This document shows, piece after piece, positions 1,297 through 6,611 of a stretch of 6,611 bases of DNA. The translations under genes and the position numbers were made by a program. Under the pieces are notes generated by a model. That model made no database searches. It was not told the origin of the DNA and saw only the letters and a list, made by a program, of their open reading frames with translations. How positions within the stretch are numbered: the stretch's first letter is position 1; each line of letters opens with the position of its first letter. Source of the stretch: a virus (lineage: Duplodnaviria; Heunggongvirae; Uroviricota; Caudoviricetes); the IMG/VR virus record IMGVR_UViG_2619619131_000010; one strand, written 5' to 3'.

Positions 1297-1488
1297 TTAA
1301 AGACCTGCCGGGATTTCGTTATTATCCTGGTGAATAACTTTATCGACCGGGTAACAGTTACCGGGAATTTTCTGTTCGGTTGCTGCAGTCACACACTCCT
1401 GCATTGTCCTGTGAACACTGACTGCAATATCAACTGGCTCTCCGGAAACAAGAAAAACTGTCAGAACAAGTGCAAATGCTGTATTCAT
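1297..1488 (-). CDS. hypothetical small protein (63 aa) with hydrophobic N-terminus; occupies the racC/ydaE/kil-type slot
   Basis: ATG at 1488-1486 overlaps the upstream gene's TGA stop (ATGA, translational coupling). AGGA about 8 nt upstream. MNTAFALVLTVFLVSG hydrophobic segment. Track ORF 1297..1542 is a longer version of the same frame. Confidence 0.45.
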   Translation of the reverse strand: MNTAFALVLTVFLVSGEPVDIAVSVHRTMQECVTAATEQKIPGNCYPVDKVIHQDNNEIPAGL

Positions 1489-1673
1489 TGCCAGCATCCT
1501 TTTTGTATCGGACGTAAACGGGCCAGCATTGAAAGAATGCATATTTTATTTAATAGCTCCCGTTCGTGTTTTCTCTTGTTAATGGCATCTTCAGTAAATA
1601 CAGGGTTACTGATAGTGACACCAATTTCAAAACAACCTTCAGACGTATTAATGTTTGGTAATAACGTTTCCAT
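1485..1673 (-). CDS. hypothetical small protein (62 aa), early-left operon
   Basis: ATG at 1673-1671 with GAGGA about 8 nt upstream (METLLPNINTSEGCFEIG...). Stop overlaps the start of the next gene. The track's 97-aa version needs a GTG start at 1778 with no clear SD. Confidence 0.5.
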   Translation of the reverse strand: METLLPNINTSEGCFEIGVTISNPVFTEDAINKRKHERELLNKICILSMLARLRPIQKGCWQ

Positions 1674-1842
1674 TATCGCGTCCTCAACAATGAATTTTGT
1701 GATGCGGTGCCTGGTGCCTCCAGGTGACGTTAACCAGTTAACAATTAACGCCGGATACAGAGAATCCACCCATAACACTGTTTTTGGTTTTAACTGTTCC
1801 GCGTGCGCTCAGCCGCATTCACCACATCACAAAATTCACTTT

Positions 1843-1885
1843 AAAAAGGGCGGCAGAGCAGTCACGGAGTAAAACTGATACCGCC
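1843..1885 (-). terminator. candidate intrinsic terminator for leftward transcription (imperfect hairpin followed by CUUUUU on the minus-strand RNA)
   Basis: Minus-strand RNA: GGCGG ... (CAGU/ACUG inner pairs) ... CCGCC then CTTTTTAAAG. The long loop makes this weak. Confidence 0.2.
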
Positions 1886-2234
1886 AAACGTCACCAGAAA
1901 ATTGATAACAGAGGGCGTTGCAGCGGGGTTGTCACTTAAGCGTATGGTCAACCTGACAACTCGGTGTCCTCAACGGGGAAGGAATAACCCCGCCATACTT
2001 ACCGCCGCGCCATTTCGCGGATTGCCACAACCGGAAACGCACGGTCGACGAAAATTTAACGACAGGCTATCTATGAACCAGCTACCTCGCCGGGCGCTTT
2101 CGCGTTATGGTCTGACTTTTCAGGGAAATATCCTTTCAGTAAACTGTCAGTGCCGGATGCTCACCCGTGTCCGGCGCACGCACTCCACCTCACCCGTGGA
2201 GAACTCCTTAATCACCAACCCTCAGGAGGGTGAA

Positions 2235-2510
2235 ATGTCGACTGAAAATGATGAAATCATTAACTCCCTGATACGCCAGATTAATAATTTTGATAAAGCA
2301 TTGCAACATGCTGCGGCGCGTAGTGATATAACTCTTTTAGCAATTTCATTTCTTGCATCTGTTATGGATAAAAATGAAGTCGTACGACAGAGTCTTGTTG
2401 ATTATATCGACTCGCTTCAACCCGGCACTTTCAATCATGAGAGCTTCAATCATGAGAAAGAGCATGTTAAGTCTGTAATTAATTCTCTTATTTTGAATCA
2501 AAAGAATTAA
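2235..2510 (+). CDS. hypothetical 91-aa protein, AT-rich moron gene; unrecognised
   Basis: ATG at 2235 preceded by AGGAGG with 5-nt spacer. Coding region is visibly AT-rich compared with its neighbours. Contains an in-frame 15-bp tandem duplication (FNHES/FNHEK). Stop at 2508-2510. Confidence 0.6.
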   Translation: MSTENDEIINSLIRQINNFDKALQHAAARSDITLLAISFLASVMDKNEVVRQSLVDYIDSLQPGTFNHESFNHEKEHVKSVINSLILNQKN

Positions 2511-2808
2511 TGCTTTTTGTTGCAAAGTAATTTTCAAGGGGTTCTATTCGAATCCCTTTCTTTTTCATTAACAAGCCAAACCCCTTATCAATGATGTCCA
2601 TTAGATCCAGGAAGTATTTTTCATGTAAATCCTGGTTATCAGAGAGCTGCTTCTCTTCGTACAGCCCGATAAAGGCTCGGCGTACGTTACCGGATATATT
2701 GTCGATGGTTTCTTTTTCTACGGTACTCAGGTCAAGAGTCGCCAGTTGAGAGCGAACCACATTCGATGCCATTTCCTGGAATGGTACTGGTAAATCTTTA
2801 AATTCCAT
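2488..2808 (-). CDS. hypothetical ~106-aa protein (110 aa if started at the ATG at 2820); unrecognised, AT-rich; second gene of the PL operon
   Basis: Track ORF 2488..2820. The ATG at 2808-2806 has GAGGT with 5-nt spacer. The alternative ATG at 2820 overlaps the upstream TGA (TGATG). The 3' end overlaps the convergent 91-aa gene by 23 bp. Confidence 0.6.
   Translation of the reverse strand: MEFKDLPVPFQEMASNVVRSQLATLDLSTVEKETIDNISGNVRRAFIGLYEEKQLSDNQDLHEKYFLDLMDIIDKGFGLLMKKKGIRIEPLENYFATKSINSFDSK
2536..2566 (+). terminator. candidate rho-independent terminator for the 91-aa gene, embedded in the convergent gene's coding sequence
   Basis: AAGGGGTTC-TATTC-GAATCCCTT hairpin (one G-U pair) followed by TCTTTTTC, 26 nt after the stop at 2510. 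No U-tract on the opposite strand. Confidence 0.3.
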
Positions 2809-2819
2809 CGTCAACCTCA

Positions 2820-2972
2820 TCAGTCAGTGTTTCTGGTTAACCAGCGACGCGCGCCAGCTTCAGTTTTAAACGTTTTGCTTCTGGTATATGTCATCGCGGT
2901 AAACGTGCCGTCCTGGTTGGGAAACACGCCGCATACCAGAGATTCGTTGTTGCCAAGCTCGATAGTATCCAT
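2820..2972 (-). CDS. small Rac-prophage-type protein, YdaF/DUF1391-like from memory (50 aa; 77 aa if the upstream ATG at 3053 is used)
   Basis: MDTIELGNNESLVCGVFPNQDGTFTAMTYTRSKTFKTEAGARRWLTRNTD. GAGGT 4-5 nt upstream of the ATG at 2972. First gene downstream of the PL-like promoter. The family assignment is recollection, not a search. Confidence 0.55.
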   Translation of the reverse strand: MDTIELGNNESLVCGVFPNQDGTFTAMTYTRSKTFKTEAGARRWLTRNTD

Positions 2973-3153
2973 GCTGACCTCATTTCCCCTTAACGCCGGG
3001 GTAGCGGAACAAAAACCTGCTGCATAGTTATTAAAGTTGAACCCTGCCGTCATGTTCTTACGCCTCGGGCTGGCTACTTAACCCCTGACCACTGCCTGGT
3101 AACTCGAGGTATTGCCCTGTATTGTGTGGGACGGGATGGGTTGGTATGGGAAA

Positions 3154-3182
3154 ACTATAGGAAATGCCTAATTACTTGTCAA
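3154..3182 (-). promoter_or_regulatory. PL-like early leftward promoter: -35 TTGACA, 17-bp spacer, -10 TATAGT on the minus strand
   Basis: Minus-strand TTGACA at 3182-3177 and TATAGT at 3159-3154. The -35 lies inside the operator copy. Confidence 0.6.
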
Positions 3183-3219
3183 TAGGCTATGCCTAATAAT
3201 TTGGGCGCAACCTAATAGG
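3166..3219. promoter_or_regulatory. OL-like operator cluster with TTAGGC/GCCTAA half-sites
   Basis: 3176-3198 is an exact 23-bp reverse-complement copy of 3819-3841 (ttgtcaataggctatgcctaata). Extra GCCTAAT (3166-3172) and CCTAATAGG (3211-3219) half-sites. Confidence 0.55.
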
Positions 3220-3290
3220 TGATGGTTTGTGGGAGAGGTAGTAGGAGTTAACTAACGGGAACTAGGAATTTCCCGTCGGACCATATAAGT

Positions 3291-3767
3291 TTAAGTTCCT
3301 GTCTTGGTGATGTTCTGGCTTTTCCGTTTTGATTCTTGATTTTTCAGATAGTTAGCTACCTTCATTTCCATTGCGGCAATGTAGGCGCGAACGTCATAAT
3401 CAACCCAACTAGGCTCCGTAGCATTTCCAGATAAGATGAAAGCCACAATTGCTTTTTTTTCATCAGAGGCGGCTTGATAAAGGCTGTTTATGTCTAAAAG
3501 TTCACTTTTTGTATCTGAAGTGGATGGGGTTGGTATGGGGTATTCGTTAAGCCCCCAATGCTCTGGACCAACCACATCAGAAAAGAAACGCCATAGTTCT
3601 GGAAGTTTGTCTTTACTTATCGAACCTTTCTTAATCCAGTCATGGATTGATGGTGGTTGGACTTTGAAATGACGTGCGATTTCCGCCTTTGATTTGACGG
3701 CTCCTGATGCAATTTTTTTGTTAATGGCCTGCTCTATCGCTCGGCCTAAGTCTTTACCACTAAGCAT
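3291..3767 (-). CDS. racR: Rac-type prophage repressor (RacR-like, 158 aa), the cI-equivalent immunity repressor
   Basis: Track ORF MLSGKDLGRAIEQAINKKIASGAVKSKAEIARHFKVQPPSIHDWIKKGS... with an N-terminal HTH. Divergent from the ydaS-like gene and flanked by operator-bearing promoters. Name from memory of E. coli K-12 RacR. Confidence 0.85.
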   Translation of the reverse strand: MLSGKDLGRAIEQAINKKIASGAVKSKAEIARHFKVQPPSIHDWIKKGSISKDKLPELWRFFSDVVGPEHWGLNEYPIPTPSTSDTKSELLDINSLYQAASDEKKAIVAFILSGNATEPSWVDYDVRAYIAAMEMKVANYLKNQESKRKSQNITKTGT

Positions 3768-3818
3768 TGCTTAATAGTCTCCTATGCGCATCGCGTTAGG
3801 CAATCCCTACTCTCGATG

Positions 3819-3864
3819 TATTAGGCATAGCCTATTGACAATTTCATTAGGCTAAGCCTAATAT
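3819..3864 (+). promoter_or_regulatory. PR-like early rightward promoter (-35 TTGACA 3835-3840, 18-bp spacer, -10 TAATAT 3859-3864) with overlapping OR-like operators
   Basis: Near-consensus hexamers about 28 nt upstream of the ydaS start. Operator inverted repeats TTAGGCatAGCCTA (3821-3834) and TTAGGCtaAGCCTAA (3847-3861) overlap the -35 and -10. Confidence 0.6.
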
Positions 3865-3891: not shown

Positions 3892-4215
3892 ATGAAAAAA
3901 GATAACTATTCATTCAAACGAGCTTGTGCTGTTGTCGGTGGGCAATCAGCAATGGCTAGGCTTTTAGGTGTATCTCCTCCAAGCGTAAATCAATGGATCA
4001 AAGGTGTACGTCAGTTACCTGCTGAGAGATGTCCTGCGATTGAACGAGCAACAAAAGGTGGTGTCCTGTGTGAAGAACTTCGTCCTGATGTTGATTGGAC
4101 ATACTTACGACGCTCGTCATGTTATTCGCAGAATATGTCGATGAAGCAACCAAATGACGAAAACGATCATACCCGAAGCATCAAGAGGCAAATGATTCAT
4201 GAAAATCAAACATGA
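3892..4215 (+). CDS. ydaS: YdaS-like Cro-type HTH regulator (107 aa)
   Basis: MKKDNYSFKRACAVVGGQSAMARLLGVSPPSVNQWIKGVRQLPAERCPAIERATKGG... matches my recollection of Rac YdaS. ATG at 3892 with GGAG 8 nt upstream; the track's GTG at 3871 is a probable over-extension. Confidence 0.85.
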   Translation: MKKDNYSFKRACAVVGGQSAMARLLGVSPPSVNQWIKGVRQLPAERCPAIERATKGGVLCEELRPDVDWTYLRRSSCYSQNMSMKQPNDENDHTRSIKRQMIHENQT

Positions 4216-4624
4216 GCACATCCGCATGGCGATGAATGCCTGGGCATACCCTGATGGTGAGAAAGTTCCTGCAGCTGAAATAGCCCGGACTTATTTCGAA
4301 CTGGGGATGACGTTCCCTGAACTGTACGACGACAGCCATCCGGAAGCCCTGGCCCGTAATACCCAGAAAATTTTCCGTTGGCTGGATAAAGACACCCCTG
4401 ATGCTGTTGAAAAAATGCAGGCTCTGTTACCGGCGATCGAAAAGGCGATGCCGCCTTTGCTGGTGGCCCGTATGCGCAGCCACAGTTCTGAATATTACCG
4501 TGAGATCGTCGAACGGAGGGATCGGCTGGTGAAGGATGTCGATGATTTTGTTGCGTCAGCGGTTGTTTTGTATGACCAGATGAATCGCGGCGGCCCGGCA
4601 GGGAATGCTGTGGTGATGCACTAA
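4199..4624 (+). CDS. ydaT: YdaT-like protein (141 aa); the family has been annotated as a toxin but is also described as a CII-like regulator
   Basis: MKIKHEHIRMAMNAWAYPDGEKVPAAEIARTYFELGMTFPELYDDSHPEALARNTQKIFRW... matches my recollection of Rac YdaT. Start overlaps the ydaS 3' end by 17 nt. Confidence 0.85.
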   Translation: MKIKHEHIRMAMNAWAYPDGEKVPAAEIARTYFELGMTFPELYDDSHPEALARNTQKIFRWLDKDTPDAVEKMQALLPAIEKAMPPLLVARMRSHSSEYYREIVERRDRLVKDVDDFVASAVVLYDQMNRGGPAGNAVVMH

Positions 4625-6072: not shown

Positions 6073-6176
6073 GCCAAATTAACAATCGGAACTTCGTGAA
6101 GAGAAAGCATAATCCAAATCTGGTGATGCTGCCAACTTACTGATTTAGTGTATGATGGTGTTTTTGAGGTGCTCCA

Positions 6177-6452
6177 GTGGCTTCTGTTTCTATCAGCTGT
6201 CCCTCCTGTTCAGCTACTGACGGGGTGGTGCGTAACGGCAAAAGCACCGCCGGACATCAGCGCTATCTCTGCTCTCACTGCCGTAAAACATGGCAACTGC
6301 AGTTCACTTACACCGCTTCTCAACCCGGTACGCACCAGAAAATCATTGATATGGCCATGAATGGCGTTGGATGCCGGGCAACTGCCCGCATTATCGGCGT
6401 TGGCCTCAACACGATTTTACGTCACTTAAAAAACTCAGGCCGCAGTCGGTAA
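6177..6452 (+). CDS. insA: IS1 InsA (transposition repressor, 91 aa)
   Basis: [51 protein letters not shown]... is the canonical InsA sequence; GTG start. Confidence 0.95.
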
Positions 6453-6611
6453 CCTCGCGCATACAGCCGGGCAGTGACGTCATCGTCTGCGCGGAAATGG
6501 ACGAACAGTGGGGCTATGTCGGGGCTAAATCGCGCCAGCGCTGGCTGTTTTACGCGTATGACAGGCTCCGGAAGACGGTTGTTGCGCACGTATTCGGTGA
6601 ACGCACTATGG
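6371..6611 (+). CDS. insB: IS1 InsB (transposase catalytic part, made as the InsAB' fusion by -1 frameshift), partial, 3' end outside the window
   Basis: Frame beginning atgccgggcaactgcccgc encodes MPGNSPHY...[33 protein letters not shown]..., recognisable as InsB. Confidence 0.9.

Follow-up and report, generated by a model that had tools for sequence, protein, structure and literature searches.

Whether a prophage repressor gene is flanked by two outward promoters carrying the same operators, as in lambda, and whether both arms of such a switch are recognizable in a Rac-type element, is the question raised by this locus. We addressed it in a stretch of 6,611 nucleotides, referred to here as the window, which is 100% identical to Escherichia coli chromosomes annotated with racR. 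The Rac prophage of E. coli K-12 is about 90% identical over the region and retains all half-sites and both promoters, with different n3 spacers. The window's prophage is nevertheless distinct from K-12 Rac, and its closest intact relative adjoins ompW. Very probably, the locus serves a Rac-type lambdoid prophage as its immunity switch, in which racR lies between two operator-covered promoters that point outward. The right half of this switch is already known from experiments in E. coli K-12. The left half is an expected part for which we found no published description: the K-12 Rac publications treat the sites between racR and ydaS only, and the open-access literature, in which older subscription papers on Rac may be missed, contained no explicit left operator or promoter of Rac, nor any allele in which the left site had been studied by binding, start-site mapping or reporter assays.

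The repressor gene occupies the middle of the switch.

3291 to 3767, minus strand: racR, encoding a 158-residue repressor with an HTH DNA-binding domain at approximately residues 1-77 and a C-terminal domain without a peptidase

The encoded protein matches the NCBIfam equivalog NF049929 (244.6 bits, cut-off 200) and is 90% identical to K-12 RacR, with His42 in the recognition helix where K-12 has Tyr. There was no Pfam match, including HTH_3 and Peptidase_S24, and no PDB relative by sequence; a single-sequence AlphaFold model was unusable (mean pLDDT 43.9). Peptidase_S24 does occur in Achromobacter and Aeromonas relatives that share the N-terminal domain (2.4e-14 and 5.7e-15). RacR was reported to share 15% global identity with lambda cI (PMC5700373). 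Given the absence of an S24 self-cleavage domain, RacR is cI-like in its function but outside the cI family, and the lambda route to induction, RecA-stimulated self-cleavage, is not available to it.

On both sides of racR, promoter and operator elements are arranged in the same order: operator, -35, operator, -10. Operators are given without a strand.

3154 to 3182, minus strand: predicted PL-type promoter of the early-left operon, -35 TTGACA at 3182 to 3177, -10 TATAGT at 3159 to 3154, 17-nt spacer, 11/12 matches in the promoter scan
Near A3147, minus strand: predicted PL start (K-12 counterpart at about 1,419,619, minus strand)
3157 to 3171: predicted OL1, ATAGGAAATGCCTAA, 2 mismatches, occupying the PL spacer with a 3-nt overlap with the -10
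3182 to 3196: predicted OL2, ATAGGCTATGCCTAA, 1 mismatch, abutting the PL -35 with one base in common, core of the left 23-bp copy (3176 to 3198)
3201 to 3215: possible, weak OL3, TTGGGCGCAACCTAA, 2 mismatches, 19 bp from OL2, low confidence
3760 to 3774: OR4, CTAAGCATTGCTTAA, 3 mismatches, overlapping the racR ATG (3765 to 3767)
3776 to 3781, minus strand: candidate counterpart, by alignment, of the -10 of the K-12 leaderless racR promoter PracR3, GAGACT here and GAGAAT in K-12
3796 to 3810: OR3, TTAGGCAATCCCTAC, 2 mismatches, over the -35 region of the racR promoter
3821 to 3835: OR2, TTAGGCATAGCCTAT, 1 mismatch, abutting the PR -35, core of the right 23-bp copy (3819 to 3841)
3847 to 3861: OR1, TTAGGCTAAGCCTAA, a perfect dyad with 0 mismatches, occupying the PR spacer and overlapping the -10
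3835 to 3864, plus strand: PR-type promoter, equivalent of PydaST, -35 TTGACA at 3835 to 3840, -10 TAATAT at 3859 to 3864, 18-nt spacer, 10/12 matches in the promoter scan

Positions 3176-3198 (TTGTCAATAGGCTATGCCTAATA) are the exact reverse complement of 3819-3841 (TATTAGGCATAGCCTATTGACAA), with 100% complementarity, and each of these 23-bp copies contains one predicted RacR operator and one TTGACA -35 hexamer. Shuffling the window 300 times with dinucleotide content preserved gave longest exact inverted repeats of 12.1 bp on average and at most 16 bp. The exactness over 23 bp is partly luck, since K-12 has 22 of the 23 bases. Allowing up to three mismatches, the dyad TTAGGC-n3-GCCTAA occurs nine times in the window compared with 2.15 expected, a number reached in none of 200 shuffles. 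Three dyads are on the left (starting at 3157, 3182 and 3201) and five at the 5' end of racR or slightly inside it (3735, 3760, 3796, 3821 and 3847), of which we count four as operators, leaving out 3735 as a weak three-mismatch match within the racR coding sequence. The geometry is mirror-symmetric: on either flank, one dyad runs up to the -35 hexamer, whose first T belongs to both, and the spacer of the promoter is taken up by another dyad that reaches 3 nt into the -10 hexamer. Promoter matches alone are unremarkable, with an 11/12 site present in 9% of shuffles and four sites of at least 10/12 in the window compared with 1.7 expected. It is the combination of exact repeat, dyads and cross-genus conservation that goes beyond chance, and not the hexamers. 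An earlier, sequence-only reading of this DNA had described the 23-bp exact inverted repeat, the TTAGGC/GCCTAA half-sites as inverted repeats over the -35 and -10, and the promoter pair TTGACA-17-TATAGT (minus) and TTGACA-18-TAATAT (plus), all of which were recovered here.

For the right half, hexamers and spacing of PR are identical to those of K-12 PydaST, for which the start site was mapped and activity was lost upon replacement of the TAATAT -10 (PMC9638921). K-12 RacR gives DNase I footprints on operators of the form (T/A)TAGGC-n3-GCCTA(T/A), including upstream of the racR ATG, and the region equivalent to OR1 is protected at the lowest RacR concentration (PMC9638921). EMSA, ChIP-qPCR and a GFP reporter provide further evidence (PMC5700373), so that binding and repression by RacR at the right-hand sites are experimentally established for the K-12 orthologue. 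Repressor family, operator consensus, PR hexamers with their 18-nt spacer and YdaT-box are the same in K-12 Rac and the window, and the four right-hand sites occupy positions 0, 36, 61 and 87 in both. A counterpart of OR4 is found at position 0 in 116/116 relatives and matches the K-12 operator over the start codon. OR3 lies over the -35 region of the racR promoter and is therefore likely the site of negative autoregulation. Apart from the operator spacers, K-12 differs in two mapped racR promoter -10 elements, including the PracR3 -10 that was mapped and mutagenized there (PMC9638921): the window has GAGACT for GAGAAT and ATCGAG for AGTAAG. These alterations were counted as a point against the main reading.

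Rightward of PR, the first genes resemble the cro and cII genes of lambdoid phages.

3892 to 4215, plus strand: ydaS-like gene, Cro analogue, first gene of the rightward operon (Pfam YdaS_toxin, PF15943, 3.8e-30; P22_Cro, 1e-8)
4199 to 4624, plus strand: ydaT-like gene, CII analogue (Pfam YdaT_toxin, PF06254, 2.8e-10)
4192 to 4209: YdaT-box, ATGATTCATGAAAATCAA, over the ydaT start codon, identical to the K-12 box

On the opposite side lies an ordinary early-left operon that would be driven by PL.

1485 to 2972, minus strand: early-left operon, predicted to be PL-driven
2820 to 2972, minus strand: DUF1391 gene of this operon
2488 to 2808, minus strand: phrog_6937 open reading frame of this operon
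1848 to 1899, minus strand: DicF RNA of this operon
1485 to 1673, minus strand: dicB of this operon

According to the annotation of an identical genome, the operon continues leftward into DUF1482 and an exonuclease. In K-12 Rac, the early-left operon contains kilR, whereas the window has DicF and DicB. The leftward genes had initially been taken for a moron. This did not hold, because DUF1391, phrog_6937, DicF and DicB count among the conserved early genes of phages and form a conserved early-left operon. The minus-strand terminator-like hairpins identified, near positions 1250 and 45, are located past dicB and do not flank the leftward genes. The sole moron-like element is an AT-rich plus-strand open reading frame at 2235-2510 (GC 0.35), followed by a terminator-like hairpin at 2536-2558, and it converges with PL. 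On the minus strand between PL and dicB, the promoter scan identified no other promoter-like site.

OL1 and OL2, with two mismatches and one, are weaker than the perfect OR1, also a point against the main reading. OL3 was rejected as a firm operator: its distal half-site is degenerate among Escherichia alleles and absent in other genera. Between racR and PL there is one conserved structure.

3254 to 3277, minus strand: 8-bp hairpin just past the racR stop codon, predicted by folding, without a U-tract

The hairpin is kept in 12 allele types, with a compensatory G:C to A:U change in K-12, and it may be a 3' stabilizer or a weak terminator between racR and PL. An intrinsic terminator in this position was dismissed, given the lack of a U-tract and of any call in the terminator scan. 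Two further candidates in the 175-nt PL leader (3147 to 2973) were discarded. A put-like or nut-like antitermination RNA had no Rfam match up to E=1, and the leader folds more weakly than shuffles (z = +1.46). The leader is C-rich and G-poor over approximately its first 30 nt only, and as a Rho-loading site it is not distinctive, with a C/G ratio of 1.33 in the first 78-nt window, the 77th percentile for the whole stretch.

Conservation provides the first line of evidence for the left promoter. We compared 116 distinct RacR-family loci encoding 38 distinct proteins, including Escherichia, a Klebsiella phage, Proteus and Mixta. A co-directional cassette is present downstream of racR in 106 of these loci, K-12 among those that have it, usually 87-132 nt beyond the racR stop codon and, where genes of 0.8-2.6 kb in total are inserted, at +787, about +1400 or +2635 nt. 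Only one cassette was found elsewhere in the flanks of RacR-family loci. Among 60 distinct PL sequences, the half-sites, TTGACA and the 25-bp OL1-OL2 spacing are at least 90% conserved, with isolated single-base changes only, and the position of the -10 is conserved; spacers and flanks are variable. The reverse association is a second line: of 119 viral-contig stretches containing TTAGGCnnnGCCTATTGACA, 104 have a RacR DNA-binding domain encoded no more than 4 kb away. The other 15 comprise 13 that are too near the end of the locus to judge and two without a RacR domain. Two outward-facing copies of TTAGGCnnnGCCTATTGACA, about 625 bp apart, are present in 71 stretches. The distance between OL and OR ranges from about 0.6 to 3.1 kb among relatives and is 0.64 kb here. 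Judged by sequence, the promoter-operator cassette is a fixed building block on both sides of the switch that is conserved across genera. The RacR DNA-binding domain and the half-sites are nearly invariant throughout the family, and altered sites at the same positions occur only in Pseudomonas phage VW-6S (35% identity) and an Aeromonas relative, for example TAAGGCATTACCTTA. This is suggestive of co-variation between operator and recognition helix, for which the cases are too few.

The third line of evidence is published transcriptomes of K-12, including strand-specific RNA-seq of RacR-depleted cells (bioRxiv 10.64898/2026.09.06.749655; PMC6765115). A Cascade roadblock at racR +3 or +58 lowered racR 20-fold or 11-fold and raised ydaG, ydaE, kilR, racC, recET, ralR, xisR and intR in RNA-seq. 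Upon C-protein silencing of racR, ydaF and ydaG increased about 40-fold. To explain both results, a promoter that RacR represses has to lie downstream of the racR 5' end, where PL alone is promoter-like. Part of the leftward induction after loss of RacR could be indirect, via YdaS or YdaT. Conservation and transcriptomes, with the experimentally verified PL/OL of the same design in the sister prophage CP-933P, constitute strong evidence for the left half; that PL is active and that RacR binds at OL1 and OL2 is inferred from conservation and transcriptomes.

Three other explanations merit consideration. In the most serious of them, which we regard as improbable, the left promoter-like site is unused; leftward transcription would then come solely from racR-promoter read-through, normally prevented by Rho/NusG termination instead of RacR binding beyond its own gene. 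Published work places a terminator that depends on Rho and NusG, trac, within the racR region, and when it fails the lethal kil gene is expressed (PMC4150792); OxyS repression of nusG is reported to permit read-through into the prophage, with no promoter named (PMC5793797). Since kilR in K-12 was ascribed to read-through, part of the leftward expression may start elsewhere than at PL, and the promoter match is weak when taken alone, as the shuffles show. Yet a roadblock at racR +3 or +58 should stop read-through, and leftward genes were upregulated nonetheless. An unused site also fits poorly with the conservation of the -35, the -10 position and both operators in 60 variants, with the way these elements accompany the leftward operon where inserts of up to 2.6 kb follow racR, and with the analogous site of prophage CP-933P, which is a functional, repressible promoter. 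Read-through with Rho termination and a RacR-repressed PL can coexist as a double lock.

It is less probable still that the dyads serve chiefly the Cro-like YdaS and not RacR, so that the shared element would reflect YdaS control of both promoters. The HTH domains of YdaS and RacR are alike (41% identity over 29 residues, E = 5e-6; PPSVNQWIK compared with PPSIHDWIK), and PL and PR of CP-933P are repressed by PaaR2 as well as by YdaS. Against this, K-12 RacR itself footprints and shifts the right-hand DNA (PMC9638921, PMC5700373), the OR footprints having been obtained without YdaS present, and K-12 YdaS is reported not to repress racR (PMC9638921). Use of the same dyads by both RacR and YdaS, as in lambda, is more likely than use by YdaS alone. 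We give hardly any credence to the third explanation, in which the 23-bp repeat is a by-product of lambdoid module exchange, marking a recombination boundary without a regulatory role. The racR flanks are mosaic, with DicF/DicB here and kilR in K-12, and some relatives have genes inserted between racR and the left cassette. A recombination scar would not account for conservation that is position-specific and footprint-like, with half-sites and hexamers kept and spacers and flanks free, nor for the 22/23 bases in K-12, by which exact identity is not what is conserved.

We return to a switch in which RacR acts on both sides. The proposal that a RacR-like repressor gene lies between leftward and rightward early promoters with common dyads is upheld by the equivalog match of RacR, the K-12 data on the right half and the conservation of the left cassette. 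Silencing of both early operons in the manner of cI, also proposed at the outset, is supported on the right by K-12 experiments and on the left by conservation and K-12 RNA-seq; the likeness to cI applies to function only, as RacR lacks Peptidase_S24.

The architecture can be compared with three known systems. As in lambda, the repressor gene is located between two outward early promoters, each of which is covered by a pair of neighbouring dyads spaced by about 25 bp, further sites on the right overlap the repressor's own promoter, and Cro-like and CII-like genes follow PR. Genes may intervene between repressor and PL in both cases (rexAB in lambda, the inserts in RacR relatives). By contrast, RacR has no detectable cI homology and no S24 autopeptidase, and lambda has three operators per side where the window has four on the right and, on the left, two firm operators plus a weak, non-conserved third. 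OL and OR are 2.4 kb apart in lambda compared with 0.64 kb here. Neither an N homologue nor a nut-like or put-like RNA was found in the window. A further difference from lambda is that YdaS, in the K-12 work, was reported not to repress racR. CP-933P of E. coli O157:H7 also has a non-cI repressor, PaaR2, divergent from ydaS-ydaT, and beyond the repressor operon a second promoter, PL933P with OL1-3, that reuses the -35/-10 design of PR and the same operators. Repression of PL933P by PaaR2 and by YdaS was verified experimentally and is about 100-fold. CP-933P differs in its operators, 18-bp palindromes built on GTTTAGTAA, and in its repressor, which is another protein co-transcribed with a toxin-antitoxin pair. 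In the Qin prophage, with DicA/DicC, a prophage repressor similarly silences the DicF-DicB operon of cell-division inhibitors. The Qin module is controlled by DicA, whereas here gene order places a RacR-type cassette ahead of DicF-DicB.

In the mechanism that we propose, RacR dimers would bind 15-bp dyads of the form (T/A)TAGGC-n3-GCCTA(T/A). At both promoters, one dimer would abut the -35 and another would occupy the spacer and overlap the -10, and dimers placed in this way would exclude RNA polymerase from both sigma-70 promoters. Occupation of OR3 and OR4, which cover the racR promoter and start codon, would result in negative autoregulation. When not repressed, PR would direct expression of the Cro-like YdaS, the CII-like YdaT and replication genes, and PL that of DUF1391, phrog_6937, DicF, DicB, the exonuclease and, further on, xis and int. 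Cooperation between OL and OR, or looping over 0.64 kb, is speculation. A linked, tentative proposal that we hold to be possible but rather doubtful combines several of these elements: the PL/OL cassette, and not read-through from racR, would be the origin of the Rho/NusG/OxyS-gated transcripts into the Rac kil region, here into DicF/DicB. RacR at OL1-OL2 and OR1-OR2 would cooperate via a 0.64-kb loop around racR, giving lambda-like control with an unrelated, peptidase-free C-terminal domain, and recombination in other bacteria would have combined the same DNA-binding domain and operators with an S24 domain.

The RacR switch silences toxic prophage genes, ydaS and ydaT in K-12 and additionally DicF and DicB here; it is well studied, and the importance of the present analysis is modest. 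Neither the location of the left promoter nor the cassette as a building block will surprise a phage specialist. What is provided is a precise candidate location for the missing left operator and promoter of Rac-type prophages. If correct, the left promoter defines the start of kilR/DicB transcripts, which the papers on Rho/NusG and OxyS describe only as read-through.

Several E. coli chromosomes match the 2.3 kb around the switch at 100% identity; in their annotation racR is accompanied by a helix-turn-helix gene, a YdaT-family gene, a DUF1391 gene and dicB, and the switch region aligns with the Rac prophage of E. coli K-12 at about 90% identity. In the closest relative without an IS1 insertion the prophage adjoins ompW and runs from int, xis and exonuclease to dicB, then racR, ydaS, ydaT and a replication gene, reaching as far as a Q-type antiterminator. 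The features considered here are as follows.

Further left, minus: DUF1482 gene and exonuclease (annotation in an identical genome)
1485-1673, minus: dicB (annotation in an identical genome)
1848-1899, minus: DicF RNA (Rfam RF00039, 76.7 bits, E = 3.7e-16)
2488-2808, minus: phrog_6937 ORF (family match)
2820-2972, minus: DUF1391 gene (family match)
3157, 3182, 3201: starts of left dyads (dyad search)
3291-3767, minus: RacR repressor, 158 aa (NCBIfam equivalog NF049929, 244.6 bits against a cut-off of 200; no Pfam family)
3735, 3760, 3796, 3821, 3847: starts of right dyads, at or just inside the racR 5' end (dyad search)
3892-4215, plus: YdaS-like, Cro-like protein (Pfam YdaS_toxin and P22_Cro)
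4199-4624, plus: YdaT-like, CII-like protein (Pfam YdaT_toxin)

The sequence-only reading had described an exact inverted repeat, two promoters and half-sites over their hexamers, and each of these was recovered. Both the window read and the repeat search show that 3176-3198, TTGTCAATAGGCTATGCCTAATA, reverse-complements 3819-3841 without a mismatch. When the 6.6-kb window was shuffled 300 times with its dinucleotides preserved, the longest exact inverted repeat per shuffle had a mean length of 12.1 bp and was at most 16 bp. A consensus scan found the predicted leftward promoter PL, TTGACA-17-TATAGT (3182..3154, minus strand, 11/12 matches), and the rightward promoter PR, TTGACA-18-TAATAT (3835..3864, plus strand, 10/12 matches). 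Because an 11/12 site arises in 9% of such shuffles, the hexamer matches by themselves are not significant. The dyad TTAGGC-n3-GCCTAA, allowing up to three mismatches, occurs at nine sites against 2.15 expected, a number reached in 0 of 200 shuffles. We took the dyads at 3760, 3796, 3821 and 3847 to be the right operators; the one at 3735, which falls within the racR coding sequence, was regarded as a weak match. In layout PL and PR are mirror images: on both sides one dyad adjoins the -35 hexamer, whose first T is common to both, and the next occupies the promoter spacer and runs 3 nt into the -10 hexamer. The 13-bp sequence GGGTTGGTATGGG occurs as an exact direct repeat, once at 3138-3150 in the predicted PL start region and again at 3527-3539 within racR, where its translation is PIPTP; by chance a window of this size should hold about 0.3 such repeats, and the copies are less alike in K-12.

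The right half is well known from K-12. There, primer extension placed a single ydaS start site behind TTGACA-18-TAATAT, replacement of TAATAT abolished activity, the RacR footprint spanned the intergenic region with the ydaS promoter protected first, the operators were defined as (T/A)TAGGC-n3-GCCTA(T/A) with one overlapping the racR ATG, and three racR promoters were mapped (PMC9638921). A summary counts four right-hand operators (PMC11879457). In earlier work EMSA had resolved three complexes of RacR with DNA, ChIP-qPCR had shown enrichment and a GFP reporter had been repressed, and the likeness to lambda had already been drawn (PMC5700373; PMC5917428). Both PR hexamers and every half-site of the window are identical to K-12 in the alignment, with differing n3 spacers (TAA vs GTC; ATA vs ACA), which identifies the right half, at the level of sequence, as the published system. 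Escherichia right sides carry four sites of the same cassette design, at 0, 36, 61 and 87 from the ATG, and relatives outside Escherichia three, at 0, 35 and 60. A YdaT-box, ATGATTCATGAAAATCAA, identical to that of K-12, covers the ydaT start codon (4192-4209); K-12 YdaT binds this box and activates a reverse racR promoter (PMC11879457).

We found no mention of operators or a promoter downstream of racR in the accessible literature, and the left half was therefore examined by comparison. Genomes, phages and viral contigs yielded 116 distinct loci of the RacR family, whose 38 different proteins range down to about 23% overall identity. In 106 of these loci a co-directional cassette lies downstream of the repressor gene, of the form [TTAGGC-n3-GCCTAT]TGACA, 4-5 nt, [TTAGGC-n3-nCCTAW], then the -10; only one such cassette occurs elsewhere in the flanks. 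It lies 87-132 nt past the repressor stop codon in most loci, and at +787, about +1400 or +2635 nt, past inserted genes, in Klebsiella-type and other phages; it thus travels with the leftward operon, much as lambda PL lies beyond rexAB. The 60 distinct versions of the cassette form a clean phylogenetic footprint: half-sites, -35 and 25-bp spacing keep at least 90% conservation, broken by isolated single-base changes only, and spacers and flanks vary. In the reverse direction, a scan of viral contigs for TTAGGCnnnGCCTATTGACA returned 119 stretches. Of these, 104 code for the RacR DNA-binding motif no more than 4 kb away, two lacked the motif and 13 were too near the locus end to judge. Two outward-facing copies about 625 bp apart are present in 71 of the 119. 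The proposal of a repressor gene between two operator-covered early promoters is thereby supported, by K-12 experiments on the right and, at the level of sequence conservation, by the 106 loci on the left. The sister prophage CP-933P offers a precedent: beyond its repressor operon lies a PL with PR hexamers and three OL operators, and PaaR2 as well as YdaS has been shown by experiment to repress this promoter about 100-fold.

Expression data from K-12 bear on whether PL acts as a repressed promoter. A Cascade roadblock at racR +3 or +58 lowers racR 20-fold or 11-fold and raises ydaG, ydaE, kilR, racC, recE, recT, ralR, xisR and intR; when a foreign C protein silences racR, ydaF and ydaG rise about 40-fold. 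A roadblock at the racR 5' end should stop read-through from the racR promoters, so that the rise of the leftward genes would call for a RacR-repressed promoter further downstream, and in that interval PL was the only promoter-like site in the consensus scan. The roadblock also raises ydaS and ydaT, and the induction could instead be indirect activation through YdaS or YdaT. K-12 kil expression, for its part, has been attributed to failed Rho/NusG termination with read-through into the prophage, one study placing a terminator, trac, within racR (PMC4150792) and a second likewise reporting read-through (PMC5793797); neither names a promoter downstream of racR. The conservation of the left cassette argues for a real PL. 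A repressed PL is compatible with read-through, and the two may together form a double lock.

The PL leader has no Rfam match, is less structured than its own shuffles and is C-rich only over its 30-nt start. These first 30 nt (3118-3147, minus; AUACCAACCCAUCCCGUCCCACACAAUACA) are nearly G-free, likewise in K-12, and might be a Rho-loading patch, but the signal is brief and does not stand out when 78-nt windows are compared. Directly past the racR stop codon, between racR and PL, stands an 8-bp hairpin without a U-tract (3254-3277, minus), retained in 12 allele types; in K-12 a G:C pair has been replaced by A:U in a compensatory way.

The leftward genes had been called a moron, a view we do not retain: they form a conserved early-left operon, and the scan found neither a separate minus-strand promoter nor a flanking terminator-like hairpin. 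Only one element resembles a moron, an AT-rich plus-strand orphan ORF (2235-2510, 91 aa, GC about 0.35; no Pfam, NCBIfam or PHROG match) with a terminator-like hairpin downstream (2536-2558). It occupies the place of K-12 sieB and is convergent with the PL operon, so PL would not express it; the ORF also shares sequence with the 3' end of the ORF at 2488-2808 on the minus strand. Behind the predicted PL, DicF and dicB stand where K-12 Rac has kilR, placing a Qin-type cell-division-inhibitor module under a RacR-type switch. A sub-threshold match to Rfam STnc100 (1641-1850, minus; 39.8 bits, gathering score 47) covers the DicF-dicB gap and part of dicB. On the other side, an IS1 copy begins at 6123 (stretch 6123-6611, GGTGATGCTGCCAACTTACTG...; insA, 6177-6452), 50 nt past the DUF977 gene. 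The match to the closest complete genomes stops at 6122, where EC21Z-078 has further early-right genes; this prophage copy is therefore interrupted to the right of an intact switch.

As to mechanism, RNA polymerase would most likely be sterically excluded at PL and PR by RacR dimers on O1 (spacer and -10) and O2 (beside the -35) of each promoter, and OR3 and OR4, the right dyads starting at 3796 and 3760, would act over the racR promoter and start codon in negative autoregulation. The comparison of RacR with cI holds in function and fails in descent: RacR has no Pfam match, no S24 peptidase and no PDB relative by sequence, and it is a functional analogue of cI and no relative. In Achromobacter and Aeromonas loci a RacR-type N-terminal DNA-binding domain is fused to Peptidase_S24 (LexA/cI-like; relative loci L011:1501-2598, L013:1501-2586 and L014:1501-2175); the two Achromobacter relatives keep the same TTAGGC-n3-GCCTAA operators upstream, and the Aeromonas one has them only in degenerate form. 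Escherichia, Klebsiella and Proteus forms carry an unrelated short C-terminal domain. These fusions indicate that the DNA-binding domain is modular, the window allele being, as judged from its sequence, a form unable to self-cleave. Cro-like YdaS may read the same operators, given the likeness of its helix-turn-helix to that of RacR (41% identity over 29 aa, E = 5e-6; racR residues 18-46, 3630-3716, vs ydaS residues 9-37, 3916-4002); the likeness extends over the likely recognition helix (PPSIHDWIK in RacR, PPSVNQWIK in YdaS). Residue 42 of the recognition helix (codon 3642-3644) is His in the window and most relatives and Tyr in K-12 and Proteus RacR; since the operator half-sites are unchanged, His42 and Tyr42 prophages are probably homo-immune.

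In conclusion, all that is added here is the location and conservation of the left promoter-operator cassette, which we did not find described; for the rest, this is the RacR switch as already known, with the architecture of a textbook lambdoid prophage.
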